A DNA stretch of 32,000 nt from Gemmata obscuriglobus (GCF_008065095.1 NZ_CP042911.1:5640001-5672000), one strand, 5' to 3'; counted from the stretch's first letter, positions 9,682 to 32,000 are shown. Made by a program: numbers and translations. The notes: generated by a model from the sequence alone, not told the origin.

Positions 9682-9833
9682 ATACCAAATCCGATTGAAG
9701 AGTATCGGTGATTGGGAGCGCCACCCGCCGGCTGACACCGGCGGTTCGACCGCGGCTCGTCGAACCGCCGGTGTCAGCCGGCGGGTGCAACCGACGCACT
9801 GCCGAGTAGTTACTCTTCAAGCGGATTTGGTAT
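9682..9833. repeat. Composite palindromic element: 23-bp outer inverted arms flanking a 29-bp perfect hairpin
   Basis: Outer arms ataccaaatccgattgaagagta (9682-9704) and tactcttcaagcggatttggtat (9811-9833) have 1 mismatch. Inner arms cacccgccggctgacaccggcggttcgac (9722-9750) and gtcgaaccgccggtgtcagccggcgggtg (9759-9787) are perfect with an 8-nt loop. Confidence 0.9.
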
Positions 9834-10029: not shown

Positions 10030-10785
10030 CTACCCGCGGCCGACGAGCGGCATCTGCGTGGCCATGACGGTCATGAACAGCACGTTCGCGTCGAGCGGCA
10101 GGCCCGCCATGTACACGACCGCCCGCGCGACGTGTTCCACGTCCATCCGCGGTTCCGGGGCGACGGTGCCGTTCGCTTGAAGCACCCCGCCGGTCATGCG
10201 CTCGGTCATCTCGGTGGCGGCGTTCCCGATGTCGATCTGCCCGCACGCGATGTCGTACTTGCGGCCGTCCAGCGCCGCGGACTTCGTCAGACCCGTGATC
10301 GCGTGCTTGGTGGCCGTGTAGGGCGCGGAATTGGGGCGCGGGGCGGTTGCCGAAATGGACCCGTTGTTGATGATCCGGCCGCCGCGCGGGGCCTGCCCCT
10401 TCATCAGCCGGAACGCCTCCTGCGTGCAAAGGAACACGCCGGTCAGGTTCACGTCAACGACCGTCCGCCACTGGTCGAAGGTGAGGTCCTCCAGCGGCAC
10501 CGCGGGCGCGCTCACCCCGGCGTTGTTGAACAGCACGTCGAGCCGGCCGAACGCCTCCTGTGTGCGCCCGAAGAGCGCACGAACGGCGGCCGGATCGGTC
10601 ACGTCTGCGGCGACCGGCAGCACACCGGCACCGGCCGGCGCCAACGCGGCGGTAGCGGCGAGCGCGTCCGCCCGGCGCCCGGCGAGGACCACGCGGTAGC
10701 CCTCGCGCACGAGCGCGAGCGCCACCGCGCGGCCGATCCCCGACCCGGCCCCGGTCACCAGGGCCACTTTCCCCGTATGGGACAT
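10030..10785 (-). CDS. SDR-family oxidoreductase (short-chain dehydrogenase/reductase)
   Basis: ATG 10785. [10 protein letters not shown] glycine-rich NAD(P) motif, NNAG, and the catalytic YTATK (YxxxK). 251 aa. Confidence 0.88.
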
Positions 10786-10795
10786 GACGCCCCCC

Positions 10796-11674
10796 TTATT
10801 TCTGCTTGAGGTGTTTGTCGAAGAAGGCGATCGTCGCCCGCTCGGCGGTCTCGGCGTCCTTACCTTTGAACCCGTGACCGGCGCCTTCGAGCTTGAGCAG
10901 TTCGGCCTCCACCCCTGCGGCCTTCAGCTTGTCCACGAGCCACTCGGCCTGTTCGACGTGGACGTACTTGTCCTCGGTGCCGTGGACGCACAGCGTCGGG
11001 GCCGCGTTCGGGGTCACCCAGTACAACGGGCTCGCCTTGATGTGCAGCGGCCGCGCCTTCTCCAGGTTCCCGCCAAGGAACAGCGGCAGCACCTCGGCGG
11101 CGTCGACGCTCTTGCCGTAGGACTTGGTGAAGTCGCTGGGGCCGTACACGTTCACAACGCACTTCACGGCGCTGGAGAACGTCGAGTTACCGCCCGCCCC
11201 TTCAAACTCCTTGACGCCGGCGGTGACGCCAAGGAACTGTGCGAGGTGCCCGCCCGCGGACCCGCCGGTGACGCCGATGCGGTCGGGATCGATGCCGTAC
11301 TTCTTGGCGTTCGCGCGGAGCCAGCGGATGGCGGCCTTGGTGTCGTGGATCGCGGCCGGGAACGGGTACTTCGGCGCCAGCCGGTAGCTCACCGTGACAG
11401 CCACGTAGCCGCGCTCGGCGAGCCGGACGATCTGGCCGTTGTACCCCTCACGCGAGCCGGCGCGGAACCCGCCGCCGTGAATGCACAGCACGCACGGGAA
11501 CGGCCCGTCGCCCTTCGGCCGGGCGATATTGAGTTGCAGGTGCTGGTCGTCCGGGTTCGTGTACTCGACGCCCTTCTCGAACGTCACCGCGTCCGGAACG
11601 GGCGGGTCTTTTTGTGCGAACGCGGGCGAACCGGAGAAGGCAAGGGCGGCGAGGGCGGCAAGCGAGCGGATCAT
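10796..11674 (-). CDS. Secreted alpha/beta hydrolase (esterase/lipase, HGGG-type fold-3 family)
   Basis: ATG 11674 gives the signal peptide [20 protein letters not shown]. Oxyanion-hole motif CIHGGGF, nucleophile elbow [10 protein letters not shown]-terminal GAGHGF. The 11764 start in the ORF track adds 30 non-signal residues. Confidence 0.85.
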
Positions 11675-11782
11675 GCGGAGCGGCTCCGGCGCGGGGTGGG
11701 AGGTGGCGAGATTGTAACCCCGCCCGCCCGAGCCGCCAGTCCGTTTTCGCGGCACCACGCGCAAAACCGGATGGCCCCCGCG

Positions 11783-14668
11783 TCACCTCCGCTTCGGGTC
11801 GAACCGGTCGCGCACGGGGGCGAAGTCCGCGGCCCGCGCCGCGTACCACTCCAGCCGGCCCGGGTTCTCAAACTCCCCCGCCGAACGGGCCGCTTCCAGG
11901 CACCGGACCGCGTTGTCCGCCGCTTCCCGGGCCGCGACCGCACGGTCCTCAGGCGAAAGAGCCGGATCGGCCCCGATCTGCTTGGCGACCAGGCACCAGA
12001 CGAGCCCCTGTTCGGCCGACGCCCAGCCCGGCTGCCGCTTCCCCAGCGCACACAGCCCGGCGTCGTACGCGCCCCGCCAGTCGCCCGCGCGCAACCGCGC
12101 GTGCAACCCGTTCAGCTCCCACCGGGAACGGTTCCGCACCCGCGGGTCCTCGTCGGCGAGTGCCGCCCACTCGTTCGCCGACGCGCGGTGCCGGCCGGTG
12201 CGATCATACAGCTCCGCGCGCCCCGCCCGGGCGTCGGAGGCCGCGTCGACCGCCGGACGGAACCCCGGCGCGCGGCGGAGCACCGGCGCGAGCGCCCCCA
12301 GCGCTTGGTTGTACCGCTTCTCCGCGTCCGCGGTCAGCTCGCGCGCGCGGAGGCTGTTCGCGTGGCGGATACAGGCCCGGGCCAGTTCGACGCTCAGCCA
12401 GGAGTCGGGCGCGTCCGCGGGCTGGGCCGCGAACGACCGCTCCATCGTGCCGACCGCCTCGCGGAACGCCTCGTCGGCGCGGGCGGGGTGGTTCCGGGCG
12501 TGCCGGTAGTCCGCCAGCTCGAGCAGCCCCCCCACTCGGGCCGCGGAGTACGGCGCGTCCCGTGGCCCCAGCACCGGGTGCCGGTCCGCGACCTCGAGGG
12601 CGGCAGCGAACTGCCTCTCGCCCTCGTCCCAGCGCCCGAGAGCGCCGAGCGCGTGCGCGTACCCCTGGTGGGCCAACTGGACGAGCCGCAGGTGCTCCCC
12701 GCCGGCCGGGCCGGTTGTGGGCAGCTCGCGCGCGTGGTCCAGTGCCTTCCGCGCGGCCCGCTCACAGTCGGCGCGGTTCCCGCGGCGGTGCAGCAGCCGC
12801 GCCCAACGGTCGTACAGTTCGCGCGCGCGGCGCCGCTCCGCCCCTTCGAGCGGGTGCCGGAGCTTCGCCCGCTCCGCCACCACACCTTCGATCAGCCCGG
12901 CGGCCTCGCGGTACGCCCGCTCGGCCTCGTCGAGGCGCCCGAGGCTCGCCAGCGCCCCCGCCGCGCACATGAGCGATTCGCACCGCCGCCCCCGCGCGTC
13001 CGGGTTCGCCGGTTCCTTCCGCGCCCACCGCCCGGCCGCGTCGGCCGCCGCCCCGTATTCCGCCGCCGCCCCCGCATGGTTGTCGTTACGGGCCTCCAGG
13101 TAGCCCAGCCAGTGCGACACGTCGGCGAGCATCTGGAGCCACTCGGGCGTGTCGGACTTGCCGGCCAGCACGGAGGTGCAGAACGCGCGACCGGACTCCA
13201 GCAGCAGGAGCCGGGTGCCGCGCAGCTCGTCGTCCGCGAACCGCGGCTCGCGGGCCAGCTCGCGGACCGCGTCGCAGATCACCCGCCCCGCGACGCGCAG
13301 GTCGGCTTCGGACTGGTTCCGGGCCGCGTCCGCGTGGCCCTGTTGCTTCACCGCGGCGGCGTGCTCCGCCAGCGCGGTGGCTTGTTCCCGCTCGGCAGCG
13401 GCCAGCGCGCGGGCCAGTTCGTCCCGGGTCCGCTCGGCGGCGGCGCGCTGCTCCTCCGCCTCGCGCCGCGCCGCGTCGGCGGTGTCGCGGGCCGCGCGCT
13501 CGCCGTTGCGCGAGTGCAGCAGCTCCAGAGCCATCCCGCCGGTGAGCAAGCAGCCGGCGCTGGAAATGAGAAGGAAGCCGGCCGCGACGGGGTGGCGCCG
13601 ACTCCACCGCCACGCCCGCCCCGCCGGCCCCACCGGGCGCGCGGCGATCGGCTTGGCGCCCAGATAGCGGTCCAGGTCGTCCGCCAAGTCGCGCGCCGTC
13701 GCGTACCGCCGCGCCGGGACTTTCTCCAGGCACTTCGCCACGATCACCGCCAGGTCGCGGGGCGCCCGCGGTGCGAGGCGGCGCACGTCCGGGGCTTCGG
13801 TGCGGAGGATCTGGTTCAGGACGTCCGCGGCGTCCGAGCCGGCGAACGGGGGGCGCCCCGCGAGCATTTCGAACAGCAGCGCGCCGAGCCCGTACACGTC
13901 CACACTGGGGCCCGGCGGCGCCCCGCTGACCTGCTCCGGTGCCATGTAATTCGGGGTCCCGCACAGCACCCCGGTGCCGGTCAGGTCGGTGCCCCCGGCG
14001 AGCGCCTTCGCGAGCCCGAAGTCGGTCACCTTGGGGCGCACGTTCGGAAGCTGCAGCCCGTCGGTCCCGTCGCTGTTGCCGGGCCCCGCCCCCGAACCCG
14101 CCACCTGCGCGAGCAGGATGTTGGCGGGCTTGAGGTCGCGGTGAATGATCCCCCGCTCGTGCGCGTGGTGGATCGCGCGGGCCACGGCCGATGCCAGCCG
14201 GGCCGCGTCCCGCGCCGCGACCGGGTGCCCGTTCTGCCACTGCCGGAGCGTGCCGCCTTCGACCAACTCCAGTGCCATGTATGCGAACCCGGCACACTCG
14301 CCGACGTCGTACACCTGCACGATGTTCGGGTGGTGCAGCCGTGCCCCGGCTTCGGCCTCAATGCGGAACCGGGCCTTGTCTTCGTCGCGCGCGAGCGGCC
14401 CGCCCAGGATCACCTTCAGCGCCACGAGCCGATTCAGGCCGAGGTGCCGCGCTTTGTACACGACGCCCATGCCGCCGCGCCCGAGTTCGTCGAGGATCTC
14501 GTAACCCGGGAACGTGACCGGCGCGCGTGCCCGCGTGCCCGCGCCGGTCGGCACGCTGAAGAGTGTCCGTTCCGCGGTTTCGTCCGGCGGGGGCAGGGTG
14601 GAAACGGGTTCGGCGGGTACGGGACACGCGTGGGCCTGTTGTGGCCAGCGTCTGATGATTCGCGACAT
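11783..14668 (-). CDS. Membrane Ser/Thr protein kinase with large TPR-like extracytoplasmic C-terminal region
   Basis: ATG 14668. Hanks kinase motifs GRGGMGVVYKA, ALKVI, HRDLKPANILL, DFGLAK, GTPNYMAPE. One TM segment (HPVAAGFLLISSAGCLLTGGMAL), then about 560 aa of helical repeats rich in A/R/E/L. Confidence 0.9.
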   Translation of the reverse strand: MSRIIRRWPQQAHACPVPAEPVSTLPPPDETAERTLFSVPTGAGTRARAPVTFPGYEILDELGRGGMGVVYKARHLGLNRLVALKVILGGPLARDEDKARFRIEAEAGARLHHPNIVQVYDVGECAGFAYMALELVEGGTLRQWQNGHPVAARDAARLASAVARAIHHAHERGIIHRDLKPANILLAQVAGSGAGPGNSDGTDGLQLPNVRPKVTDFGLAKALAGGTDLTGTGVLCGTPNYMAPEQVSGAPPGPSVDVYGLGALLFEMLAGRPPFAGSDAADVLNQILRTEAPDVRRLAPRAPRDLAVIVAKCLEKVPARRYATARDLADDLDRYLGAKPIAARPVGPAGRAWRWSRRHPVAAGFLLISSAGCLLTGGMALELLHSRNGERAARDTADAARREAEEQRAAAERTRDELARALAAAEREQATALAEHAAAVKQQGHADAARNQSEADLRVAGRVICDAVRELAREPRFADDELRGTRLLLLESGRAFCTSVLAGKSDTPEWLQMLADVSHWLGYLEARNDNHAGAAAEYGAAADAAGRWARKEPANPDARGRRCESLMCAAGALASLGRLDEAERAYREAAGLIEGVVAERAKLRHPLEGAERRRARELYDRWARLLHRRGNRADCERAARKALDHARELPTTGPAGGEHLRLVQLAHQGYAHALGALGRWDEGERQFAAALEVADRHPVLGPRDAPYSAARVGGLLELADYRHARNHPARADEAFREAVGTMERSFAAQPADAPDSWLSVELARACIRHANSLRARELTADAEKRYNQALGALAPVLRRAPGFRPAVDAASDARAGRAELYDRTGRHRASANEWAALADEDPRVRNRSRWELNGLHARLRAGDWRGAYDAGLCALGKRQPGWASAEQGLVWCLVAKQIGADPALSPEDRAVAAREAADNAVRCLEAARSAGEFENPGRLEWYAARAADFAPVRDRFDPKRR

Positions 14669-14945
14669 CGCCGCTCCGGGCGTTGGTGGTTCTCACCCAA
14701 CCATACAACCGGCTACCGCCGGAGGCGCGCAGAGCGAACTTCACTTTTTCAGACTGCGGGGGGTCCCGACACGGTTTGCGTCGCAGCAGGGCCGTTCCTT
14801 GTTTCACGCCGCGCTGTTGAGGTCCGAAGTGAACATACGTTGTTGTTCTTCCCTGCTTCGGCACACGCCGTGTGGAACAAGGAACGGCCCTGTCCGCGAA
14901 GTGATCTTGTCTAGCTGAGTGCCCGTCGCTATGGCGGGCGGAACT

Positions 14946-19413: not shown

Positions 19414-20145
19414 GTGAACGCTCTCCCCCGGCTCGACCAAACGGACTGCTTGCTCGAGGTGGTCCAGCGCCTCTCATCGGTCCGCTCGCTGGCCGAGATC
19501 ACAGACATCGCGAAGGTCGCGGCCCGGCGCCTCACCGGCGCCGACGGGGCGTGCTTCGTTCTGCGCGACGGGGACAAGTGCTACTACGTCGACGAAGACG
19601 CCATCGCCCCGCTGTGGAAGGGCAAGCGGTTCCCGCTCGAGGCCTGTATCAGCGGGTGGGTGATGCTCAACCGCCAGCCGGCTCTGATCCCTGACATTTA
19701 TGCCGACGACCGGATCCCGCACGACGCGTACCGACCGACGTTCGTGAAGAGTTTGGCAGTGGTCCCGATTCGCTCGCTCGGCCCGGTTGGGGCACTGGCC
19801 GTGTACTGGGCTGACACGGCCCGCCCGACGGCCACCGAAGTGCGGTGGCTTCAGTCGCTCGCGGACTCGACCGCCTTGGCTCTTGAATACCTCGAATCGC
19901 AGGCCGAAGTGAACAAAGCGCTAGGGGTTGCGAGCTTCTTGGAGGGTGAAAACGCGCGCCTGCGTGACACGGTTAAGCCGGCTGCGCCGGGCGATCTCGT
20001 GCGGATGTGTTTCCTTACGAAGCGGTTCGAAATAGGAGGTCGGTGGGTGGCAATCGAGGAACTCCTCGAGTTGTGTTACGGAGTACACGTCACCCACGGG
20101 CTGAGCCCCGAAGGGCTGGACCAGATAAGCGCCGGCCGGCGGTGA
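19414..20145 (+). CDS. GAF domain-containing protein
   Basis: GTG 19414. LLEVVQRLSSVRSLAEITDIAKVAARRLTGADGACFVLRDGD...VPDIYADDR...SLAVVPI...GALAVYW is a classic GAF pattern (about 160 aa). An unassigned C-terminal tail of about 80 aa follows. Confidence 0.8.
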   Translation: MNALPRLDQTDCLLEVVQRLSSVRSLAEITDIAKVAARRLTGADGACFVLRDGDKCYYVDEDAIAPLWKGKRFPLEACISGWVMLNRQPALIPDIYADDRIPHDAYRPTFVKSLAVVPIRSLGPVGALAVYWADTARPTATEVRWLQSLADSTALALEYLESQAEVNKALGVASFLEGENARLRDTVKPAAPGDLVRMCFLTKRFEIGGRWVAIEELLELCYGVHVTHGLSPEGLDQISAGRR

Positions 20146-20214
20146 ATGATCCATTTCCGTCGTCGTTGGTCTGGGTCGGTCGATCAGGTGAACCCGCCCG
20201 CCGGAGCCGTCCCG

Positions 20215-21264
20215 TTGGCTTGGTTCCACATCGCGCGGACCGAGGATGAGCAACGGACCGTCAACGCCGAGCGTGACACGGACGTCCGCTGCAAGATGAT
20301 GGTGTTGTGGGTGCTCCACCACGGCGATACCCGCGAGCGAGCCGCAACCGTTACCGGACTCGGGCGAGCGACCGTCCAGCGGTACGTCCGGACGTACAAG
20401 GACGGCAGACTCGACGGGCTCCGCCGATGGGGCGTCACCGGCCCGGTCAGCGCCTTAGCCACCCATTCCGACGTGGTCCGAGCGTCCCTCACGGCCAACC
20501 CGGTTCGAACCACCGCCCAGACGGCCGACCGGATCGAGCAGCTGACCGGGATCCGTCGCCAGCCGACTCAATCCCGCGTGTTCTTGGCCGGACTGGGGTT
20601 CAGCGATGCGCGTTCGGGCGATCCCGATCCCCCCAAAAAGCGCTCGCCGAGCACTTCGCGACCCAGCGCGGGTTCCTCGGCACGCAACTGAGGCCGGCTT
20701 GGATGCGGCCGTCGCCGGGCGTGGGCACGTGTAGTTCGTGGACGCGACCACTGCGTGTACGGGACGTACCTGTGTTGCCGGTGGTCGATCCTGCGGGTGT
20801 TCGTTCGGGCCGCGAGTGGGCGTCAGCGGTTCAACGTGCGGGGCGCGTGGAACGCGGTCACCCGGACATGCGTGTCGGTCACCAACACGACGGTAGTGAA
20901 CACCGATACCATGTGCGAGCTACTCCGCAAGATTGCGGCCCTCGGGTCGGTCGGCCCGGTCACGGTCGTGCTGGACAACGCGCGCTAAGAGCGGAACAAG
21001 GTGGTGCAGGCGCGGGCGGCCGAGTTGTCAATCACCCTGTTGTACCTGCCCAGCTATTCGCACAACCTGAACCTCATCGAACGCCTCCGACGGCTCCTCA
21101 AACGCAGGAGCGTTTACGGCAAGTACCGTCCCAACTTCGCCACCTTCAGGGCCGCCATCGAGGACACGCTGAGCCAACTGACCACCGCCCACGCCGAACC
21201 GTTGGCCGCGCTCATGACACTCCAATTCCAGGAGTTCGAAGATGTCTCACTCCTGACCGAGTAA
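20215..21264 (+). pseudogene. IS630-family transposase, degraded (multiple frameshifts plus one nonsense codon)
   Basis: The HTH part (GLGRATVQRYVRTYKDGRLDGL) is in the 20146 frame. RVRAIPIPPK, KALAEHFATQRGFLGTQL and HCVYGTYLCCRWSILRVFVRAASGRQRFNV sit in different frames around the C6A5 run at 20629-20639 and near 20690-20760. TAA 20986-20988 interrupts VLDNAR*ERNKVVQ where IS630 proteins have DNARY. The C-terminus LLYLPSYSHNLNLIERL is intact. Confidence 0.85.
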
Positions 21265-21290
21265 AGTATATCTCGCTTGCAACGCCACAA

Positions 21291-21349
21291 CCCGAACAGC
21301 GGTGCATCCCAAATCAGACGGCGGTGTCAGCAGGCGCGCCGGGTTCGGC
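21291..21349 (-). repeat. Array repeat copy R1 (attC-like), 59 nt
   Basis: Minus-strand reading: GCCGAAC CCGGCGCGCCTGCTGACACCGCCGTCTGATTTGGGATGCACCGCT GTTCGGG. The stop codon of the 21314-21676 ORF lies inside it. Confidence 0.65.
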
Positions 21350-21676
21350 GTCTTGCCAAACGTCGATGAAGCCTTGGCCGTCTATCATAAACCGCCAGCC
21401 CGGCGGCAGGCCGAGGAACGGGACGGCGAGGCGGCAGTAATCTGCCATGTGCTCGACGCACAACGGCTGGTAGAAGTCGGCGGCGTCCGACCACTCGCCG
21501 CCGGCGTAGATGTACCATCCGCACGTTGTGTCGGTCGGGGCCAGCCGGACGCCGTGGATCGGGATGCGATCGAGCGTCGGGATGGCGAGCCCGACCTTCG
21601 ATCCCGGCGCGGGCGGCTCGAACCCTGCTCCGTAGGTGCGGCAGATACGCTGTTGCAGTTCTTGCAGCGGCTCCAC
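21314..21676 (-). CDS. Cassette ORF G1: Imm33/DUF2185-like putative immunity protein
   Basis: GTG 21676 is preceded by GGAGGGCAAAGAG. QQRICRTYG...IPIHGVRLAPTDTTCGWYIYAGGEWSDAADFYQPLCVEHMADYCRLAVPFLGLPPGWRF matches my recollection of the Imm33-type GWYIW-GE...DFF.PLH..HL...YL.LPPGWRF pattern. The 22138 start in the ORF track overlaps G2 and is Arg-rich. Confidence 0.6.
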   Translation of the reverse strand: MEPLQELQQRICRTYGAGFEPPAPGSKVGLAIPTLDRIPIHGVRLAPTDTTCGWYIYAGGEWSDAADFYQPLCVEHMADYCRLAVPFLGLPPGWRFMIDGQGFIDVWQDAEPGAPADTAV

Positions 21677-21750
21677 CTCTTTGCCCTCCGCCGACGAAAA
21701 TAAAGCTGACCTGCCGGCTGGGCACGAGCGAGCAACACGTTCCAGAAAGC

Positions 21751-22113
21751 CTACAAGCCCCGCCGGTTTGGTGCTGCGACTCGTTCGGCGTCCGAGTCTC
21801 CCGCAACCGAGGGCTGCGGAGGACGGACGGCCAGCACGATCGCCCCGTGCAGTGTGCCCGCCAGCAACCCGCCAAGCAAGCAAAACAGGTCGAACCCGAT
21901 CGCCCCGTTGGGCAGGTCGGCGCCCGCCACCAGCGGCCCAAGCGGCCCGCCGACGGCGACCGCACCAACCGCCCACCAGAACACGTACCGGCCGTGGATG
22001 CGGCGGGCCTCGGACTCGGCCCCGATGCCCCGCCGCAGGGCTCGGCCGACGAAGAAGACCATCGCGGTCATCACGGCATGATCGCCGAGGTACGACAGGT
22101 ACGCTTCCACCAT
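21751..22113 (-). CDS. Cassette ORF G2: small membrane protein (hypothetical)
   Basis: ATG 22113 is preceded by AAGAGGGCGCGG. 120 aa with about 3 hydrophobic helices (AVMTAMVFFVG, YVFWWAVGAVAVGG, FDLFCLLGGLLAGTLHGAIVLAV). Confidence 0.6.
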   Translation of the reverse strand: MVEAYLSYLGDHAVMTAMVFFVGRALRRGIGAESEARRIHGRYVFWWAVGAVAVGGPLGPLVAGADLPNGAIGFDLFCLLGGLLAGTLHGAIVLAVRPPQPSVAGDSDAERVAAPNRRGL

Positions 22114-22129
22114 CCGCGCCCTCTTCTTG

Positions 22130-22216
22130 GATGAACAAACAGCACAGCGGCCGCGCATCGCAATCGGTGCGAGAAGCAAGCTCTGTGCAGCGGTGCGGTG
22201 CCGCGGCGGGTTCGGA
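22130..22216 (-). repeat. Array repeat copy R3 (attC-like), 87 nt
   Basis: Minus reading starts TCCGAACCCGCCGCGGCACCGCACCGC 2 nt after the TAG stop of G3. It ends ...GCGGCCGCTGTGCTGTTT GTTCATC, 16 nt before the G2 ATG. Confidence 0.65.
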
Positions 22217-22218
22217 CT

Positions 22219-22647
22219 CTACGCCTTCCGGTCACGGAACGCGCCGCGAACGTCCGGGCTGCCGGCGGTGACCAACGCCCAGACGCCGATGGGCAGCCCG
22301 AGGATCAGGCGCGGGGAGACGCACGGCACCATCGCAGTGATGCTCCCGGTGCGCGCGAGCCCGTAGGCATCCAAGCGGAGCAGGTTGAGACCGCCGGCGA
22401 AGGTGACGAGCCCGGCCAGCGCGTGGAACAGACCGATGACACCTTCCGCTCCGCCCAAGTTCATCCCACCCACCACGAACGCCATGACGGCGATGAACAC
22501 GCCCAACCCGCTGTTGATGAGCCCGACCAGCATCAGCGCGATGGCCGGCGGTTTGACCCGGCGGAGTGCGGCGGCGCGATCGACCAGCGGACGCTCGTCG
22601 GTGTCATCCCGCGACCGCTTCCACGGCTTCGCTTCATCACCATCCAT
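22219..22647 (-). CDS. Cassette ORF G3: membrane protein (hypothetical)
   Basis: ATG 22647 is preceded by GGAGGGTTGA. It has a charged N-terminus, then 3-4 TM helices (PPAIALMLVGLINSGLGVFIAVMAFVVGG, GLFHALAGLVTFAGG, LILGLPIGVWALV). Confidence 0.65.
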   Translation of the reverse strand: MDGDEAKPWKRSRDDTDERPLVDRAAALRRVKPPAIALMLVGLINSGLGVFIAVMAFVVGGMNLGGAEGVIGLFHALAGLVTFAGGLNLLRLDAYGLARTGSITAMVPCVSPRLILGLPIGVWALVTAGSPDVRGAFRDRKA

Positions 22648-22661
22648 TCAACCCTCCATTT

Positions 22662-22750
22662 ATCGAGCATCAGTCTCACCGGCCACGCACAACGCGACCC
22701 GGTCACGAAGTACGTACTCTCCCGCGGTCTGGTGCGGCGCCCGGTTCGCA
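22662..22750 (-). repeat. Array repeat copy R4 (attC-like, right core degenerate), 89 nt
   Basis: Minus reading: TGCGAACCGGGCGCCGCACCAGACCGCGGG ... GGCCGGTGAGACTGAT GCTCGAT, 14 nt before the G3 ATG. Confidence 0.55.
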
Positions 22751-22758
22751 CCGGAGAT

Positions 22759-23169
22759 TCAATCTGACGGAATAATTGCGGGCAAGAGAACCGCCGCGAC
22801 GCACACGATGAACGTCATCACCCCAACGGCTGCAACGGCCAACGCCGGGATGATCCGCCCGCCGGGCAGCCGCGCCCGGACCCAGCCGGCGTACACGACG
22901 ACCAACAGCGCAACGGCCCCGGTGCCGATCATCGCGGCCGGTCCGGCGCCGAACCGCCCGAGTGGCATGAGCATACGAGTCAGCACAGGCATTTCGACGC
23001 CGGTGGCCGCGAGTTTGTCGAACACGCGAACGAATCGAGGCAAGACCGCACTCACGAACACCACCGTCAGCAGCCATCCACCACCAATGATCGCCGCACC
23101 GGCGGCGAGTGGCATGGGCGCGCCACTCGGCCGAGGAGGCGCAATCGGCTTCGTCAACGCATTCGCCAC
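22759..23169 (-). CDS. Cassette ORF G4: membrane protein with a single T2SS-F (GspF/PilC)-like domain
   Basis: GTG 23169 is preceded by AGAGGGCGTGCC. LPRFVRVFDKLAATGVEMPVLTRMLMPLGRF resembles the P.F..+F...G..+P..T core of T2SSF domains and is flanked by TM helices. 136 aa. Confidence 0.55.
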   Translation of the reverse strand: MANALTKPIAPPRPSGAPMPLAAGAAIIGGGWLLTVVFVSAVLPRFVRVFDKLAATGVEMPVLTRMLMPLGRFGAGPAAMIGTGAVALLVVVYAGWVRARLPGGRIIPALAVAAVGVMTFIVCVAAVLLPAIIPSD

Positions 23170-23185
23170 GGCACGCCCTCTGATG

Positions 23186-23279
23186 ACCTAACAACCAGTA
23201 AGCTCACCGGCACTGCACTTAAAATGGAGCGAGTCCATCCACACTACCTGGCGGTATCGGGTGTAGCGCCGGGTTCGGC
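23186..23279 (-). repeat. Array repeat copy R5 (attC-like), 94 nt
   Basis: Minus reading: GCCGAACCCGGCGCTACACCCGATACCGCCAGG ... GTGCCGGTGAGCTTACTGGTT GTTAGGT. The right core is a perfect GTTRRRY, 16 nt before the G4 GTG. The G5 stop lies inside the repeat. Confidence 0.7.
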
Positions 23280-23555
23280 TGAGCCGCCTGCCCCTTGGCC
23301 CGTAGTCCCCAGCCGGTCGGGAAGCGGGCGGAACCCGTCCGGCCACTGATCCGGTGGCCGGACGGGACGCCGGCGCCACGCCAGGTATACCGCTCGCACG
23401 ATTCCCCACCCGACAAACGCGGGCAAGGCCCCGACGACCGGCGGCAGGGTGAAGTGCGCGCGACACCCAAGGACGGCCCCGACCACTCCCGTCACGAGGA
23501 AGAAGGCACCGAGCACGAACGCCAGCGAGGCACAGACCTTATCGAAGACATTCAC
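23244..23555 (-). CDS. Cassette ORF G5: small membrane protein (hypothetical)
   Basis: GTG 23555. Two TM helices (VCASLAFVLGAFFLVTGVVGAVLG, VVGALPAFVGWGIVRAVYLAW), then a P/G/R-rich tail that reads into repeat R5 (..SAEPGATPDTAR). Confidence 0.55.
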   Translation of the reverse strand: MNVFDKVCASLAFVLGAFFLVTGVVGAVLGCRAHFTLPPVVGALPAFVGWGIVRAVYLAWRRRPVRPPDQWPDGFRPLPDRLGTTGQGAGGSAEPGATPDTAR

Positions 23556-23571
23556 TCGACGAAGACTCCGG

Positions 23572-23662
23572 GGCCGACAAACAGGTCACCGGCCGCGGGG
23601 CCACGCGCTCGGTGCTAGAAACAACGTATTCAATCGCGGTCCGAAGCAGAGCCGGGTTCGGC
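23572..23662 (-). repeat. Array repeat copy R6 (attC-like), 91 nt
   Basis: Minus reading: GCCGAACCCGGCTCTGCTTCGGACCGCG ... GCGGCCGGTGACCTGTTT GTCGGCC. The right core has lost one T. It ends 16 nt before the G5 GTG. Confidence 0.65.
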
Positions 23663-23671
23663 GCGACCGCC

Positions 23672-24268
23672 TCACCGGAAGAAGCCGACCAAGATCGAAC
23701 CGGGCGCCGCCTCCGCCGCCCGTAACCAGCCGGCCACGGTAACGAGTGCCGCCCGCTCCTCGGCGTCGGCCACCGTCGGCAGCAGCCGGCCGAGCGGGGC
23801 TGATGCCGCGAGCATGGCACCCGCCGACCAATGGCCGAACTCCAGCAGCCGGTCCCACGGCGGTCGGAGAGGTGGCGCGATGCACCACAGATTGACGAGC
23901 GACAGCGGCACACCACCGGCCGTAAGAATACCGTCCAGGCGATTGAACCACTCCACCCGGCAGGGACTGAAGTAGTTGTTGCTGGCCCACGCACCGTAGT
24001 ACCGGCACACCAGCTCGAACGCGGTGGCGTACAGCCCGGCGTCATCCTCGTCCATGCTCGGGCGGCTGCCGATCAGCTCGGCCACCGCCCCGGCAGCGGT
24101 CGGCCCCTCCCAGCAATCGGGGTCGCCGGTCTCGAAGTCGCTGTCGAGTTGCTCGATGTCCTCGGCGAACGACTCCAGGATATCCGTGACAAGCTCGCGA
24201 TCCCCGCTCCCGGGAGCGGCCAGAACCTCATCACGAGGCACCAGGTACGCCGTCAGACCCTGGCTCAC
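23672..24268 (-). CDS. Cassette ORF G6: acidic cytosolic protein (hypothetical, immunity-protein-like)
   Basis: GTG 24268 is preceded by GAGGAGAGCTTTAC. 198 aa, no TM segment, acidic N-terminal half (DILESFAEDIEQLDSDFETGDPDCWEG). No family recognised. The 24331 start would begin inside repeat R7. Confidence 0.55.
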   Translation of the reverse strand: MSQGLTAYLVPRDEVLAAPGSGDRELVTDILESFAEDIEQLDSDFETGDPDCWEGPTAAGAVAELIGSRPSMDEDDAGLYATAFELVCRYYGAWASNNYFSPCRVEWFNRLDGILTAGGVPLSLVNLWCIAPPLRPPWDRLLEFGHWSAGAMLAASAPLGRLLPTVADAEERAALVTVAGWLRAAEAAPGSILVGFFR

Positions 24269-24310
24269 GTAAAGCTCTCCTCGGTCCGCGGCTTCAACGC
24301 CGCATAAACA

Positions 24311-24390
24311 ACTCAACCGCACCGCCATCACCGGATGAGCGGTGCGTCACAAGCCCAACGGCGGTGTCAGGTGTAGCGGGGGGGTTCGGC
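24311..24390 (-). repeat. Array repeat copy R7 (attC-like), 80 nt
   Basis: Minus reading: GCCGAACCCCCCCGCTACACCTGACACCGCCGTTGGG ... CGCACCGCtcatccggtgatgGCGGTGCG GTTGAGT. The right core is a perfect GTTRRRY. An alternative core GTTGAAG lies at 24292-24298. Confidence 0.65.
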
Positions 24391-24399
24391 ATGCCGCGC

Positions 24400-25035
24400 T
24401 CACCGTAGCCGCTCCAGCCGCGAGACGGTGAGCCGCCACCCATCGGGCGAGACGTACACCGGTCCGCACGTCTCGGCGTCCAGGTGCGTGTGCTGCGCCG
24501 GCTCGGCGCGGGCCACCCGCAGGATCTGTTCCGCCAGCCACACCAACCCAGGGCACGTGCCAACCAACTCGACCTCAGAGAACGTGTCGGGGCCGGCCGT
24601 AGGACGAACTGTAACGGCCAGTTGCGGTGCGTCTTTCGCCTCCGCCGGGTTAACCACTTCAACGAGTCCGAATCGTGAGATGGAAGGCCCTTCCAGGCGC
24701 GTGCCATCCGGATGGCCAAAATGTTCGCGATGGTTTCTCGTCACGGCACCGCGACCGACTTTGAAATTGACCTGACTCCGGACCTCGTTGTTCCAATTTG
24801 TTGCGTCCGTCCGAACCAGAATGTTGCAAATCAATCCTCGGTACCGAGACGGTCCGCTCAAGACTGGACCGAACAGCCCGTAGAAGAGTTGCCCGTCGAA
24901 GAGATGGCCTTTCACCTGGAAGTAGAACGGCGTTTCGTCCTTGCAAACGTTGTAAACACCGTCGCTTGAAGCGATCACCAAATCGTCCTGTGGCGTCAGC
25001 CGCAGGACGGCGCCGATGTCCGCGATGACAGACAT
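24400..25035 (-). CDS. Cassette ORF G7: cytosolic protein (hypothetical; C-terminal part Imm32-like)
   Basis: ATG 25035 is preceded by TAGGATAAT. 211 aa. The C-terminal FSEVELVGTCPGLVWLAEQILRVARAEPAQHTHLD...GWRLTVSRLE resembles the G..GL..LA..L..L...HxHLD pattern I associate with Imm32. This is a weak, memory-based call. Confidence 0.5.
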   Translation of the reverse strand: MSVIADIGAVLRLTPQDDLVIASSDGVYNVCKDETPFYFQVKGHLFDGQLFYGLFGPVLSGPSRYRGLICNILVRTDATNWNNEVRSQVNFKVGRGAVTRNHREHFGHPDGTRLEGPSISRFGLVEVVNPAEAKDAPQLAVTVRPTAGPDTFSEVELVGTCPGLVWLAEQILRVARAEPAQHTHLDAETCGPVYVSPDGWRLTVSRLERLR

Positions 25036-25042
25036 ATTATCC

Positions 25043-25138
25043 TACGAACAAACAGCACCCCTGTACCGCAACATCCCGAGCGGCAATGCGTCCCAATACC
25101 GCGATCGGTGTCAGGCGCGGCGCCGGTTTGAGTTCGCC
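25043..25138 (-). repeat. Array repeat copy R8 (attC-like), 96 nt
   Basis: Minus reading: GGCGAACTCAAACCGGCGCCGCGCCTGACACCGATCGCGG ... GGGGTGCTGTTT GTTCGTA, 7 nt before the G7 ATG. Confidence 0.65.
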
Positions 25139-25142
25139 GCCC

Positions 25143-25469
25143 TCAGCCACCGAACAGACCGATTGCGGCCCCTCCAAAGCCAAGAGCGGCACCGCAGCCG
25201 CAGATAGCCCGCGCGGCCAGCGGATAATCCCGTCCGAACCAGCCCGCGATGTCCGGATCGGCCAACCAGCGGGTCGGGCCAAAAGCGTATACCCCGCAGA
25301 ACGTGCCGCCCCCGACGCCCGCCAGGACCATTGCCCCAGCCTCGCCGCCAACCGCTCGCAAAACGGCCCAGACGGCGGCCTCGGCCAGGGGCATCACGAC
25401 CAAGGCGCAGACCACCGATTGCGCGGCGGGCGACAACCCGCCCGTTCGACTCCGGCTCCGATCCGACAT
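25143..25469 (-). CDS. Cassette ORF G8: small Gly/Ala-rich membrane protein (hypothetical)
   Basis: ATG 25469 is preceded by GAGAGGTTTCCTGA. 108 aa with 3 hydrophobic segments (VVCALVVMPLAEAAVWAVL, AMVLAGVGGGTFCGVYAF, ICGCGAALGFGGAAIGLF). Confidence 0.6.
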   Translation of the reverse strand: MSDRSRSRTGGLSPAAQSVVCALVVMPLAEAAVWAVLRAVGGEAGAMVLAGVGGGTFCGVYAFGPTRWLADPDIAGWFGRDYPLAARAICGCGAALGFGGAAIGLFGG

Positions 25470-25486
25470 TCAGGAAACCTCTCTGT

Positions 25487-25576
25487 GCCGAACAATCAGA
25501 TCACCGGCTACACACGTTGCGACACGGGTTAAAAACTCCGCACTCCACAGCGGTCCGGTACAGGGCCGGGTTCGGC
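25487..25576 (-). repeat. Array repeat copy R9 (attC-like), 90 nt, best preserved
   Basis: Minus reading starts GCCGAAC one nt after the TGA of G9. It ends ...GTAGCCGGTGATCTGATT GTTCGGC, the exact reverse complement of the left core, 17 nt before the G8 ATG. Confidence 0.7.
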
Positions 25577-25577
25577 C

Positions 25578-26039
25578 TCACGGTGACATGCCAGTACCGG
25601 CGACATTCAGGTTGAAGGACAGTATCACCGCCCCTTTGAGGGGGCTGTTGGCCTGTTCCCGCAACTCCAACATTCCGGTCCTTGGGTCCACCGCCACGGC
25701 GAGATGGACGACTCCTTCCAGGTCCGCCAACAGGCACCGCCGGAACGTCCCATCTTTTTTGGGTGAGTAGACGGCGACTTTCTTGTAGGAGTTCCCAATG
25801 CCGGTGTGGGTATCGATCACCCAGAACACCTTCTTGTCGTACTCCACGCGAGAGTACGTGATTGTTCCGGGCTTCTCCGCGACCTCCCGTTGACACTGCT
25901 CGAACGTCCCGGCCGCCACCTCCTGAGGGGGCGTGGGGAGGAGAAGGGCTTCGGCGGAGAACTCTCGGGGAACATCCGCGTACACGCCGCGCGTGACGCA
26001 CGAGATGGTGAGTGCCGCGACGGCAATGAAAATGCGCAC
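25578..26039 (-). CDS. Cassette ORF G9: small secreted/lipoprotein-like protein (hypothetical)
   Basis: GTG 26039 is preceded by AGGAGCGAAC. The N-terminus VRIFIAVAALTISCVTRG is signal-peptide or lipobox-like. 153 aa. The in-frame extension to 26357 has no signal and no RBS support. Confidence 0.55.
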   Translation of the reverse strand: MRIFIAVAALTISCVTRGVYADVPREFSAEALLLPTPPQEVAAGTFEQCQREVAEKPGTITYSRVEYDKKVFWVIDTHTGIGNSYKKVAVYSPKKDGTFRRCLLADLEGVVHLAVAVDPRTGMLELREQANSPLKGAVILSFNLNVAGTGMSP

Positions 26040-26300
26040 GTTCGCTCCTGCTACGAAAGGCCCAACGCCTCTTACGCCAAAACTACTGCTAGCTCGTGAG
26101 ACATCGCACACTAAACACGGGACCATCTCGCCCGCGCGCTGCACGCGATCGGGGCTGAACTCGATGTCCCGCTCCGACAGCTCGAATGTGATTAGATCAG
26201 CACGCCACCGAGGCGCCAAGCTGTGAGCGGGCGCGATTGCTCGATTGAGGGCGCCGCCATCGGGCAAAGAAATTCGTACCGCCTGAGTCGCGCAGTTCAG

Positions 26301-26364
26301 GGCTAACGTGACGAGCCCCCGGAGAGTGCGACTGCGGTGGGGACGCCCCACACCCAAGTTCGCA
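26301..26364 (-). repeat. Possible degenerate tenth repeat copy (R10)
   Basis: Minus reading: TGCGAAC TTGGGTGTGGGGCGTCCCCACCGCAGTCGCACTCTCCGGGGGCTCGTCAC GTTAGCC. Core-like ends and a CACCGC box are present, but the inner boxes are poorly conserved. Confidence 0.3.
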
Positions 26365-26867
26365 GCGATATTCGAGCAGGTGGAGCATCCGTTCTAACTG
26401 GCACCAACCCGGCGTTCTGCACAGGCCCCCGATGCACCCGCCGGCTTCTTCGCTCCTTCCTAGCGGCGCCTGTTCCGCCCACAGAACCGCCAAAGGTAAC
26501 CAGGCGGGACGGGAAGCAGTACCCGACGCAGTGGCAGACGGTGTGTAAAACCGAAACAAGGCAAAACGTGGCGAACGGAACGTTGTTACCGAATATGCTA
26601 GGTGATCGGCGACTTTAGACCGAGGTGATGAGCGGACCTGGGAGGACCGAAAGATCAAGAGATGCGGGTCGTCTGCGGTGATGGACGTGTTGGCAAGTCC
26701 GAAAGGCGGGTCGGTACTGCACCGGCCCGCCGGGGCTCCGGTGTCTCGGCTCAGTGCCCACTGTCATCGATCGGCGGAGCGCCGCCGGCGCTGCGGATGT
26801 CGTTCTGTTTAGGAGGGCCACTCTTCTTACCAGGATTGCGACCGGACCGGCCGCTGCCACAGCCCTG

Positions 26868-27470
26868 TCACTGCGAGGGAAGCGGTAAGCCCTGCAGTTC
26901 GGACAGTTCGAGCCGGGCGAGCCGGATGGACGACTCCAGGTCCTCGCGGTGCTTGGCCGCCGCGGTCGCGTCGCCCCGCTTGTCCGCCTGCTCGGCTAAC
27001 AGCCTGTAGGTCTGCCGGGAGGACTCGATTTCCGGCTCCCACACGTCGCGGTTCTGCCCCTCGAGCCGCATCAGCCAGGTCATGTAGTACTGGCTGTTGG
27101 CCTGAGCGGACCGGGCGTCGGCCAGTACCTTCGGATCTGCGCCCCCGTCCGCAGCCATCTCGTCCACCAGGGTACGGAGTTCGCTGTGGGCCTCCGGGAG
27201 CTGCCTCGCGAGCATCTGGGCCTTCGCCTTCTCCAACCGAATTTTGCGCGCCTCGGCCCCCCGCCCTTCCGGGAGGGCCTTCAGCGCCAGGCCGAACTCT
27301 TCGACCGCCGAAGAGTAGTCTTCGGCCGCGACCGCCTTCTCAGCGGTGCGGAGGTGTCGGGCGGCGAGGTCGAGCTTCCGCCCGTCCACCCCCGGCCCGA
27401 ACCAGTGAGCGACTGCGGCGCCGACGCCGAGCAGTAGCCAGCCGGTTAAGAACAGAACACGGATCGCCAT
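26868..27470 (-). CDS. Membrane-anchored helical (TPR-like) protein, hypothetical
   Basis: ATG 27470 gives MAIRVLFLTGWLLLGVGAAVAHWF (N-terminal anchor). An A/E/R/L-rich helical region of about 175 aa follows. The 27614 start adds a non-coding-looking leader. Confidence 0.65.
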   Translation of the reverse strand: MAIRVLFLTGWLLLGVGAAVAHWFGPGVDGRKLDLAARHLRTAEKAVAAEDYSSAVEEFGLALKALPEGRGAEARKIRLEKAKAQMLARQLPEAHSELRTLVDEMAADGGADPKVLADARSAQANSQYYMTWLMRLEGQNRDVWEPEIESSRQTYRLLAEQADKRGDATAAAKHREDLESSIRLARLELSELQGLPLPSQ

Positions 27471-28056
27471 TAAGACGCCCTCCGAACAGAATGGGAATGG
27501 GAAGCGAAACCGAGACAACGGACAAGCTAACGATACCGGATCTGTGCCGCCCCGCGAACTGTTTTCGCGGGAAGTGACCCGCGCCTCTTGGCCCGTCCCA
27601 GGGTGCCCCTTCACGCTTCACCCACCGCCGTCCGCACCCTCACCAACGCCCCGCCGATAACTGGTCCCACGCGGGCCACACGCCGCCCGTGTTCGCACGC
27701 CAGATTTGTCGGCGTCTTGCCGGAGCAACTTGCGCGGCCGGTTTGCGGGGTTGTGCCGGTGGAAACAGATGAGATTAGCGGGGGCGCAAAAGCACGAAAC
27801 CGCACCAACCGTCCCAGCCGTTGCAAAAGGCGTGTCGAAGCCAACGAGGACGGGCCGGTCCACCCGAATCAGGGTTGCCCTCCTCACTGCTTCTTCACAT
27901 TTCATTCCTATAGATAAGTTTTGACCCGCCCTCGCCCTCTCTCGCAGATGACCGCTTCAACAAGCTCGCCCTTCTGACATTCGGCCGCAGTTAAGACAAA
28001 GTTCCAAACACTTGATCTATTACTTTTTAACGTCACTCGCCCTTCTAGAGGGTCCC

Positions 28057-30490: not shown

Positions 30491-31318
30491 ATGCGCCGTT
30501 CCCGATGTACCGCCGTCGCGGTGCGGAGCCAACACGCCTGGGCGGGCGCGTTGGCCGACGTGCTGCACTTGACCGACGGTCCGTCGGTGACCCGGGTGGC
30601 GGTGGCCCGGTGCCTGCTGGTCGCGTCGGCCCTGCGGGTGGCCCTCTCGGCGGTCGCCCGGCGGGTCGCCGCCGTGGGCCGGGAGACGGTCCGCAAGGCC
30701 CTGGCCGGGGATCTGCCGCGGGACCGGGACACCCTGGAACGGTACCTGGCGGCCGGGTTCCGTCGGCACCTCCCGCGGTCGTTCCAGGAGCACCCGATCC
30801 CGATCGCCATCGGCACCCACCCGCGGCCGTTCTACGGGGACTACGAGAACACACCCGGAGTGGTCGGGGGCAAACCCAAGGACGGGGCCAAGTGGTTCTG
30901 GGGGTACGCCACGGCGGTGGCCCTGGTGCCCGGTCACCGGCACACCCTGGGGCTCACCGCGATGCGCCCCGGGGACACACCTGACGCCCGGGGAGAGCGG
31001 CTCCGGGCCCAGCTCGGGTGGGCCGGGGTGAAGGTCCGGTACGTGCTCCTGGACCGCGGGTTCTACTCGGCCCGGGTGGCCAACGCGCTGGCCCGACGCC
31101 CGCTCCGGTTCATCATCCCGATGGTGCGGCGCGGCAAGGCGGTGCAGCCGTTGTTCCGGCGCGGCACCCGGGGGTGGTTCGAGCACACCATCCGGTGCCG
31201 CAAGTGCCGGGCCGATTCGGCCACCGTGCGGGTGGCGGTGGTGCCCGGACCCGACGGCCGGCGGCCGCTCGTGTTCGCGTGCTCCGACGGGTTCGACCGG
31301 TTGCCCCGGGTGGTGTAA
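30491..31318 (+). pseudogene. DDE transposase (IS4/ISH3-like), C-terminally truncated by IS insertion
   Basis: IAIGTHPRPFYGD...TPGVVGGKPKDGAKWFWGYATAV...YVLLDRGFYSARV...RFIIPMVRRG resembles the first two thirds of IS4/ISH3-type transposases. The ORF ends at TAA 31316-31318, immediately followed by GTGACTGTCCCATATG, the likely terminal repeat of the neighbouring IS5-family element. The third catalytic (E) region is missing. Confidence 0.55.
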
Positions 31319-31340
31319 GTGACTGTCCCATATGTGAGAT

Positions 31341-32000
31341 TTATGCCACCGTGTGGTATTGAAACTCGGCGTCGCCCCCTTTCGGCTCAAGCCGGTTGAG
31401 CATCAGGTGGATCATGGCCAACTTGACGAACGCCTCCGACGACCGCACCGTCTTCTCCCGGTCCTTGGACAACCGCCGGCACGTCCCCAGCCAGGCGAAC
31501 GTCCGCTCCACCGTCCACCGCCGCGGTAACTTCACCCACCCCTTGGCCCCGTCCGGGCGGCGGACGATGACCAGCTCCCACCGGGCGTTCGTCTCGACCC
31601 ACTCGTACAGGGCGTAGTTGTGGTACTTGCGGTCGGCGAACACCCGGCGCACCTTCCCCATCGGTTGCTCGTCCAGCCGGCCGAACAGTTCGGCCGCCGC
31701 CTTGGCATCATCGACGCTCGCGGCCGTCACCAGCACGGCCAGCAGCAACCCCATGGAATCCACGAGGATGTGCCGCTTCCGCCCGTCCACGTTCTTGGCG
31801 TTGTCCCGGCCCCGCTCCTCGCCGCCGGAGGTCGTGTCCACCGACTGGCTATCCACGCTCGCGGTCGTCCGGGGCGAGTACGGCCTCTCGGCGGTGCGGA
31901 CCTTTTTGCGGAGAAGGTCATGGATCGTGTCGCGGGTGCCGTTGTGTCGCCACTCGTCGAAGTACCGCCCGACCGTGGACTTGGGCGGGAAGTCCTTGGG
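31341..32000 (-). mobile_element. IS5-family transposase gene (DUF4096 N-terminal type plus DDE), 5' part beyond the window
   Basis: The continuous minus frame from 32000 reads PKDFPPKSTVGRYFDEWRHNGTRDTIHDLL...VDSQSVDTTSGGEERGRDNAKNVDGRKRHILVDSMGLLLAVLVTAASVDD...ADRKYHNYALYEW...LPRRWTVERTFAWLGTCRRLSKDRE, a hallmark IS5 (IS427/IS1031-type) sequence. Stop at 31341. Confidence 0.88.

Follow-up and report, generated by a model that had tools for sequence, protein, structure and literature searches.

A probable integron cassette-array fragment without an adjoining integrase on the chromosome of Gemmata obscuriglobus

Integron cassettes move through attC sites, the bottom strand of which folds into a hairpin with a 7-bp R box, a central spacer that stays unpaired, an L box bearing two single-base bulges, and a variable loop; the integron integrase (IntI) recognizes the shape of this hairpin and cuts between the G and the TT of its R' core. 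IntI excises cassettes as circles and re-inserts them at attI. In Vibrio cholerae, the superintegron is a sedentary chromosomal array of small cassettes, mostly of unknown function, that carry one homogeneous attC family (the VCR). Here we describe a locus on the minus strand of the Gemmata obscuriglobus chromosome, positions 21266-26095 of a stretch of 32,000 nucleotides (nt) that was analyzed as a whole (GCF_008065095.1, NZ_CP042911.1:5640001-5672000; hereafter the window), in which nine short open reading frames (ORFs) alternate with nine attC-like repeats and which is very probably a fragment of an integron cassette array without an adjoining integrase. It shares with the Vibrio superintegron the sedentary chromosomal setting, the small cassettes and the single attC family; whereas the Vibrio array is active and contiguous with intIA and attI, the array in the window is detached, short and eroded.

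Clusters of attC sites without an integron integrase are known as CALINs, and are recognized by the occurrence of two or more attC sites with no intI gene within 4 kb (Cury et al., 2016; PMC4889954). The array in the window agrees with this description, since its nine co-oriented sites lie within 4.3 kb and no intI is present in about 9 kb upstream and 21 kb downstream. It has been proposed that CALINs originate when a rearrangement splits an integron (Cury et al., 2016; PMC4889954), and the location of the window array between insertion sequences (IS) is in keeping with such an origin. Unlike the CALINs described there, the window array contains several degenerate sites, and both of its ends are cut inside an attC.

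Integrons of G. obscuriglobus have been catalogued before. Table S3 of the IntegronFinder 2.0 study (PMC9024848) records for G. obscuriglobus GCF_003149495.1 a single complete integron, in which 78 attC sites and 43 proteins are counted, and four CALINs with 39, 47, 133, and 48 attC sites; among the rows listed for GCF_008065095.1, the counts are the same. The array in the window thus has, in the same species, listed elements of the same kind. Since a complete integron is on record, an intI gene is present in the G. obscuriglobus genome, as an earlier reading of the window made from its sequence alone (the sequence-only reading) had demanded of a genuine cassette array.

Nine repeat copies and nine open reading frames

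A strict three-block pattern (GCCGAACCC ... ACCGC ... CCGGTGA) matches the minus strand of the window four times and none of 100 shuffles. We also scanned the whole window, with filters off, with a covariance model (R1) built from 23 well-formed sites on six contigs, namely those of Gemmata algarum (L104), Gemmata sp. metagenome-assembled genome (MAG) contigs (L034, L089), a Gemmataceae MAG (L118), an unclassified bacterium (L025), and a Planctomycete MAG (L124). No site from G. obscuriglobus was contained in this training set. R1 gave nine matches (26.7-57.1 bits, E 1e-12 to 7e-5), all of them on the minus strand, within 21256-25576 (4.3 kb), and one per ORF end, while the next best match elsewhere in the window, on either strand, reached only 17.5 bits. 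The orientation is defined by the model as well, since for copy a1 the score falls from 50.9 bits on the minus strand to 9.5 bits when the plus strand is read. The nine copies (84-97 nt each), which we read as attC sites a1 to a9, are the following:

25487-25576, minus strand: attC a1; R1 50.9 bits; R'' GCCGAAC and R' GTTCGGC, complementary at 7 of 7 positions; GTT intact
25043-25138, minus strand: attC a2; R1 35.2 bits; R'' GGCGAAC, R' GTTCGTA; GTT intact
24299-24390, minus strand: attC a3; R1 57.1 bits, the top copy; ATGCGGC at the R' position; GTT lost
23573-23662, minus strand: attC a4; R1 46.2 bits; R' with a 1-nt deletion (GT-CGGC)
23186-23279, minus strand: attC a5; R1 41.0 bits; R'' GCCGAAC, R' GTTAGGT; GTT intact
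22662-22750, minus strand: attC a6; R1 33.5 bits; R'' TGCGAAC, R' GCTCGAT; GTT lost
22130-22216, minus strand: attC a7; R1 26.7 bits (22133-22213), the weakest; R'' TCCGAAC, R' GTTCATC; GTT intact
21693-21789, minus strand: attC a8; R1 34.9 bits; R'' GCCGAAC, R' TTTCGTC; G of GTT lost
21266-21349, minus strand: attC a9; R1 34.8 bits; R'', L'', loop, and a degenerate L' (GGCGTTGCAAGCGAG) kept; R' replaced by the end of an IS630-family element

In the R1 alignments, the AAC triplet is kept in all nine R'' cores, while the GTT triplet is kept in four of the nine R' cores (a1, a2, a5, a7). The bottom strand of a1 folds with a 7-bp R box. Rfam searches at gathering thresholds returned nothing in the window, and no tRNA genes were found in it.

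These data change the earlier picture of the repeats in several details. The sequence-only reading had counted eight co-oriented repeats; their common orientation stands, but one copy at the junction of G2 and G1 (21693-21789) had been missed, and the stump of a tenth (26076-26095) adds to the nine. Two of the right ends had been misplaced: the GTTGAGT assigned to copy 3 lies inside the L' arm, the homologous R' being ATGCGGC, and the GTTCGGG assigned to copy 8 (21291) lies in the loop, with the degenerate L' arm running on to about 21266 in the R1 alignment. CTGACACCG, which had been taken as a general feature of the repeat, occurs in only three copies. The statement that each repeat begins at or just after a stop codon does not apply to G5, G2, and G1, the stop codons of which lie inside the repeat.

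The ORFs fill the minus strand between 21314 and 26039 head to tail, as had been described, and each is preceded, 4-10 nt 5' of its start, by a purine-rich run resembling a Shine-Dalgarno sequence (GGAG/AGAGGG type; read from the sequence), again in line with the earlier description. The public record used for comparison (G. obscuriglobus UQM 2246, GCA_000171775.1, contig ABGO01000050) contains gene calls for all nine, with lengths of 153, 108, 211, 198, 103, 118, 142, 120, and 120 amino acids (aa) in the order G9 to G1:

25578-26039, minus strand: G9; 153 aa; lipoprotein-like signal peptide (MRIFIAVAALTISC); public gene call; no Pfam or NCBIfam match
25143-25469, minus strand: G8; 108 aa; small hydrophobic protein; public gene call; no family match
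24400-25035, minus strand: G7; 211 aa; weak Imm32 match; exact protein in public G. obscuriglobus records
23672-24268, minus strand: G6; 198 aa; DUF7691 (Pfam PF24740, E 2e-35); locus tag GobsT_48150
23244-23555, minus strand: G5; 103 aa; hydrophobic; stop codon inside attC a5
22759-23169, minus strand: G4; membrane protein; 136 aa from the GTG at 23169
22219-22647, minus strand: G3; 142 aa; membrane protein; public gene call
21751-22113, minus strand: G2; 120 aa; membrane protein; stop codon inside attC a8
21314-21676, minus strand: G1; 120 aa; Imm33-like (Pfam PF24719, E 1.5e-35)

Two short-read Logan assemblies of the same locus, SRR9494610 (L002) and SRR5887567 (L003), break no more than about 80 nt past the stop codon of G7, inside a3, which would be expected of a repeat family that hampers assembly.

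The repeat family and its link to integron integrases

The related loci came from a scan of genome contigs with a 21-base three-block pattern, which matched at least 120 loci; among the matches listed, 5 of 120 were real arrays, nearly all of the others were chance matches to Actinomycetota and Proteobacteria of high GC content, and none came from G. obscuriglobus itself. The five loci with multiple copies on the same strand (L104, L034, L089, L118, and L025) were picked out with a profile of the 5' half of the repeat. In the window, in L104, L089, L118, and L025, and in a further metagenomic contig (L125; ENA ERZ26692472 ctg32104), the site stands at the end of an ORF and in the same orientation.

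The structure of the family, as derived from the 23 reference sites, consists of a 7-bp R box, an unpaired spacer, and a 13-bp L box broken by one unpaired base. In the reference alignment, 92.6% of the cells that should pair do so; shuffles reach 81.6%, and alignments with slid partners no more than 59%. The thirteen L-box pairs are paired in 90.3% of cases, and eight of them show compensatory changes (CACCTG/CAGGTG, CAGCAG/CTGCTG, CACCGG/CCGGTG); the covariation score (0.278 versus 0.093) was reached by none of 500 shuffles. The AAC and GTT triplets and one unpaired A are invariant across the 23 sites, and the L'' arm combines this A with a conserved unpaired G (T and C on the bottom strand). 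Folding the bottom strands as DNA, a check that the sequence-only reading had proposed, gave the expected R box, spacer, bulged L box, and loop for the well-formed copies (z scores of -3.9 to -6.1); on the L'' side, a T and a C each bulge out as a single base, and an internal loop of 6 x 5 nt is formed. Features of this kind define attC sites, and the bulged bases and the spacer mark the strand that is recombined. In attC-aadA7 the second bulge is a G, whereas it is a C in the Gemmata family.

The same block order, the same spacing, and the same position of the unpaired G are found in the attC model published for the Planctomycetes, the consensus of which reads GCCUAAC-AAuGC-GUU-G-CAgC-GGA ... 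GCUG-AaC-UucGuC-GUUAGGC (Ghaly et al., 2021; PMC8352920), while that of the Gemmata family reads GCCGAAC-CCGGC-GCT-G-CACC-TGA ... GGTG-AGC-T(N4)-GTTCGGC. The two differ in the fourth base of R'' and R', which is G/C in the Gemmata cores but 76% U and 62% A, respectively, in the published model, and in the spacer, which is rich in G+C in the Gemmata family, unlike that of the published model. We applied the latter as its sequence-profile (hidden Markov model) half, rebuilt from the supplement. Run over about 1 Mb of fetched high-GC DNA, most of it unrelated, this profile placed arrays of Gemmataceae and Planctomycetes on top (up to 21.7 bits, E 1.5e-4), and these top matches share their coordinates and strand with the matches of R1.

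In two of the contigs the family follows an integron integrase gene. In L034, the integrase lies directly upstream of two family sites and scores 398.7 bits against TIGR02249 (cut-off 265); it lacks about 42 N-terminal positions of the profile, is 54% identical to IntI1 (E 6.5e-76), and its closest relatives in a large protein collection, among the 120 listed of at least 8000 matches, are named integron integrase. One of these relatives is encoded by the full-length intI of L124 (TIGR02249, 459.5 bits); downstream of this gene, in the same orientation, come TCTAATTACAAGTTCGGC, then an ORF, and then an attC with an R1 score of 75.5 bits. The same TCTAATTACATGTTCGGC stands downstream of intI in L034, and we read this block 3' of intI as a putative attI core.

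The attI-like core (TCTAATTACA(A/T)GTTCGGC) lies 130-190 nt past the intI stop codon in both contigs (L034 1-2058, minus strand; L124 10001-11786, plus strand), so that intI, attI, and cassettes follow one another on one strand, in the reverse of the classical divergent layout. Despite this non-classical layout, both integrases are about 70% identical to the proteobacterial IntI proteins of Methylomonas and Thiobacillus.

This comparative evidence supports the reading of the Gemmata repeats as attC sites, putative substrates of an integron integrase. The proposal that the window holds a chromosomal cassette array or CALIN of a planctomycete is borne out in this respect: other Gemmataceae contain arrays of the same family on one strand, with attC architecture and compensatory changes, the family follows a TIGR02249 integrase in two contigs, and the published Planctomycetes profile picks it up.

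Two of the nine cassette genes recur in other arrays. G9 shares 86% DNA and 80% protein identity with a cassette of the G. algarum array (L104), where both of its neighbors differ. An 81% homologue of G6 lies between two attC sites of L125, a contig with at least 24 co-oriented attC sites in 8.9 kb, and here, too, the neighbors differ from those in the window. A 69% homologue of G6 is found in another contig (L126) among housekeeping genes and without attC context; hence, this gene family is not restricted to integrons.

In L125, seven attC sites between 3629 and 5311 (72-80 bits) follow one another at 214-316 nt from start to start, with 120-220 nt between them, and look like very short or ORF-less micro-cassettes. 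Such micro-cassettes would fit the IntegronFinder 2.0 entries for G. obscuriglobus, in which attC sites outnumber proteins (e.g., 47 attC sites and 15 proteins).

Array ends, erosion, and competing explanations

The two ends of the array and the adjoining DNA contain the following features:

26096-26867, no strand: gene-free stretch of about 770 nt upstream of the array; no called gene
26076-26095, minus strand: 3' stump of a tenth attC (GAGCT ... GTTTTGGC) without the R''-L'' half; upstream end of the array
20146-21264, plus strand: IS630-family transposase pseudogene; helix-turn-helix (HTH) ORF and two DDE_3 fragments in different frames (Pfam HTH_23/28/29, DDE_3; public gene calls)

At the upstream end, the intact attC that precedes the G9 homologue of G. 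algarum (L104:4166-4260) has the counterpart of its L'-spacer-R' end, column for column, in the stump, and this alignment places a true, degenerate R' upstream of G9 at about 26076-26083; unrelated DNA begins beyond the stump, and R1 itself has no match at 26076-26095. The GTTGGGC at 26060-26066, which the sequence-only reading had likened to an attI x attC junction, does exist, but it aligns with the non-attC spacer of G. algarum and is not the homologue of R'. A junction with attI therefore finds no support, given the R' in the stump and the absence from the window of TCTAATTACAWGTTCGGC, the attI-like core of L034 and L124. Between 26096 and 26867 we found no attC, attI-like core, intI remnant, or similarity to the other fetched loci; 26040-27000 likewise showed no significant similarity to fetched loci and no attI-like motif, and a tblastn search with three IntI proteins over positions 1-35035, counted from the first letter of the window, detected no IntI similarity. 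At the downstream end, the IS630-family pseudogene forms the boundary, and the aligned R' region of a9 overlaps the stop codon of the transposase ORF. The terminal repeats of this element (20146-21264) are not definable, and the fetched sequence contains no second copy of it.

In a complete integron, intI, attI, and the promoter Pc lie beside the first cassette; here, there is no intI, no attI-like core, and the array starts with a truncated attC. Since neither intI nor attI is present in the window, we consider the segment 21266-26095 very probably to be an integron cassette-array fragment of the CALIN type. That it is truncated and has eroded follows from the R1 alignments, from the stump, from the IS element in place of the last R', and from the pairing, as 79% of the cells that should pair do so in the nine window copies (in an alignment fitted to the model), compared with 92.6% in the reference set. 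The R1 scores of the window copies lie at the low end of the range of the family.

Four observations weigh against this interpretation. The R'' core GCCGAAC has a G where the textbook RYYYAAC has a Y as its fourth base. For the window copies themselves, folding energies are not clearly better than those of shuffles (z scores of +0.3 to -2.2), so that the folding check succeeded for the well-formed copies of the family and not for those of the window. The Planctomycetes profile gave no more than 5.5 bits (a8, its top match here) and 4.6 bits on the window (E 0.57 and 1.1), both at true R1 sites. Lastly, no G. obscuriglobus element of about nine attC sites is listed in Table S3 (PMC9024848), which gives counts without coordinates; the nine-site block is probably absent from the IntegronFinder 2.0 list, and the standard tool may not call an array of this kind.

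Folding energy alone was rejected as evidence of structure for the window copies, given z scores of +0.3 to -1.6 in minimum-free-energy DNA folding; the case is built on the comparative evidence.

A scenario that would account for the locus begins with nine cassettes, in each of which a short ORF is served by a ribosome-binding site of its own and precedes an attC. A rearrangement, perhaps mediated by IS elements, may have split this array from a larger integron, and the detached array would now be eroding. At most four of its sites (a1, a2, a5, a7) could still be substrates in trans for the IntI of the complete integron elsewhere in the genome. The remaining cassettes would by now be fixed chromosomal genes, the nine comprising three for immunity-like proteins, one for a lipoprotein, and five for small membrane proteins.

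The strongest competitor holds that the array is not a remnant but a working, split-off block of the G. obscuriglobus integron, from which the resident IntI regularly excises cassettes and captures them again in trans. It can draw on the AAC triplet of all nine R'' cores and the GTT triplet of four R' cores, on the complete integron on record for the genome, on the occurrence of G9 and G6 in other arrays, and on the argument that CALIN cassettes may be mobilized in trans (Cury et al., 2016; PMC4889954). Yet five of the nine R' cores are missing or lack the crossover triplet, the pairing falls behind that of intact arrays as given above, the scores are among the lower ones of the family, and the array is truncated at both ends. 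We therefore regard a fully working block as unlikely.

Still further down in plausibility comes the proposal that the locus is an orphan island of immunity genes, the repeats being scars left by homologous recombination during the serial displacement of toxin and immunity genes rather than substrates of an integrase. The Imm33-like G1, the weak Imm32 match of G7, and the occurrence of the G6 family (DUF7691) outside integrons speak for it. However, neither the array nor its flanks contain a toxin gene or a C-terminal toxin fragment, six of the ORFs bear no immunity signature, and the repeat is a conserved hairpin with compensatory changes that elsewhere stands beside integron integrases. Such an island would explain the cargo but not the structure, since an immunity gene may equally be the cargo of an integron cassette; we consider this account highly improbable.

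That the repeats are merely attC-like intergenic palindromes of the repetitive extragenic palindrome (REP) or miniature inverted-repeat transposable element (MITE) type, or transcription terminators, is hardly credible: two palindromes in the window (1222-1289 and 9718-9785) do contain the words CTGACACCG and GTTCGAC, and a few attC 3' ends fit a crude terminator pattern, but the nine copies all lie on a single strand and within 4.3 kb, each at the end of an ORF, neither strand of the remaining 27 kb contains another, a true site read on the opposite strand drops from 50.9 to 9.5 bits, the other palindromes of the window reach at most 12 bits on R1, and in other genomes the family forms same-strand arrays adjoining intI. 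The scattering in either orientation that the sequence-only reading had named as a sign of such elements was not seen within the 32 kb and all related loci, where the copies are clustered, co-oriented, and located at ORF ends.

The two palindromes just mentioned are 68 nt long, near-perfect, and 76% alike (CTGACACCGGCGGTTCGAC ... GTCGAACCGCCGGTGTCAG). They use the L'' and R-box words of attC in inside-out order, and they may represent a separate family of REP-like elements or terminators.

If the reading as an eroded CALIN is correct, one may go further and propose that the IS-mediated split removed the array from the control of IntI, and that the loss of GTT triplets froze a set of immunity-like and small membrane proteins into a stable operon, i.e., that the cassettes were domesticated. 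We put this forward as a speculation that we ourselves find quite doubtful. Were it true, the roughly 345 attC sites of Gemmata, spread over six or more blocks, would offer a natural series for the passage from mobile to fixed cassettes.

The erosion at this locus can be put in order, R' being lost first, R'' kept, and the L-box pairing kept in part, and this order offers a marker by which arrays that have become detached may be dated. Degenerate arrays may escape generic tools, but a lineage-specific attC model built from neighboring species recovers them. Beyond annotation, the locus matters little: the integron content of G. obscuriglobus has already been catalogued, and one small, eroded block, a minor and probably unlisted addition, joins a genome already recorded as rich in integron sites.

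Cassette cargo and neighboring features

Pfam families were recognized in three of the nine ORFs, namely G1, G6, and, weakly, G7, the match of which to Imm32 (PF15566; 24.7 bits) stays under the cut-off of 27. For the other six, searches of Pfam and NCBIfam found no family; judged by eye, they comprise one lipoprotein-like and five small hydrophobic proteins. At least one cassette, and perhaps three, would thus encode an immunity-type protein of polymorphic-toxin systems, a cargo of which we found little description in the literature on integrons. For G4, we count from the GTG at 23169, which has AGAGGG 6 nt upstream; the public call begins at the ATG at 23115 and gives 118 aa. The last codons of G1 are read from attC a9. 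The C-termini of G5 and G1 are near-identical (...AEPGATPDTAR and ...AEPGAPADTAV) and are encoded by the R''-L'' arm of the respective repeat (23244-23279 and 21314-21349). A crude scan of 21000-27700 for sigma-70 promoters found none; Planctomycete promoters may not fit the sigma-70 consensus.

The array lies in an IS-rich patch, with IS elements on both sides. Together with the IS630-family pseudogene and the gene-free stretch, it is bordered by a GAF gene (19414-20145) and a gene for a 200-aa protein (26868-27470). Transposase genes cluster 4-9 kb upstream of it (30491-31856; L001 907-3695), among them one with a weak DDE_Tnp_1 match (E 0.008), one with a clear DDE_Tnp_1 match (IS4/IS5-type), and a second DDE_3/HTH (IS630-type) copy.

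Farther away in the window, a 738-aa ORF (957-3173) contains a tandem duplication of about 870 nt (1461-3173; 72-85% identity in several blocks), which indicates two paralogous domains of about 290 aa. Between 11500 and 14000, inside a 1376-aa ORF (10784-14914), the G+C content rises to 0.75-0.78, compared with about 0.65-0.68 in most of the window.

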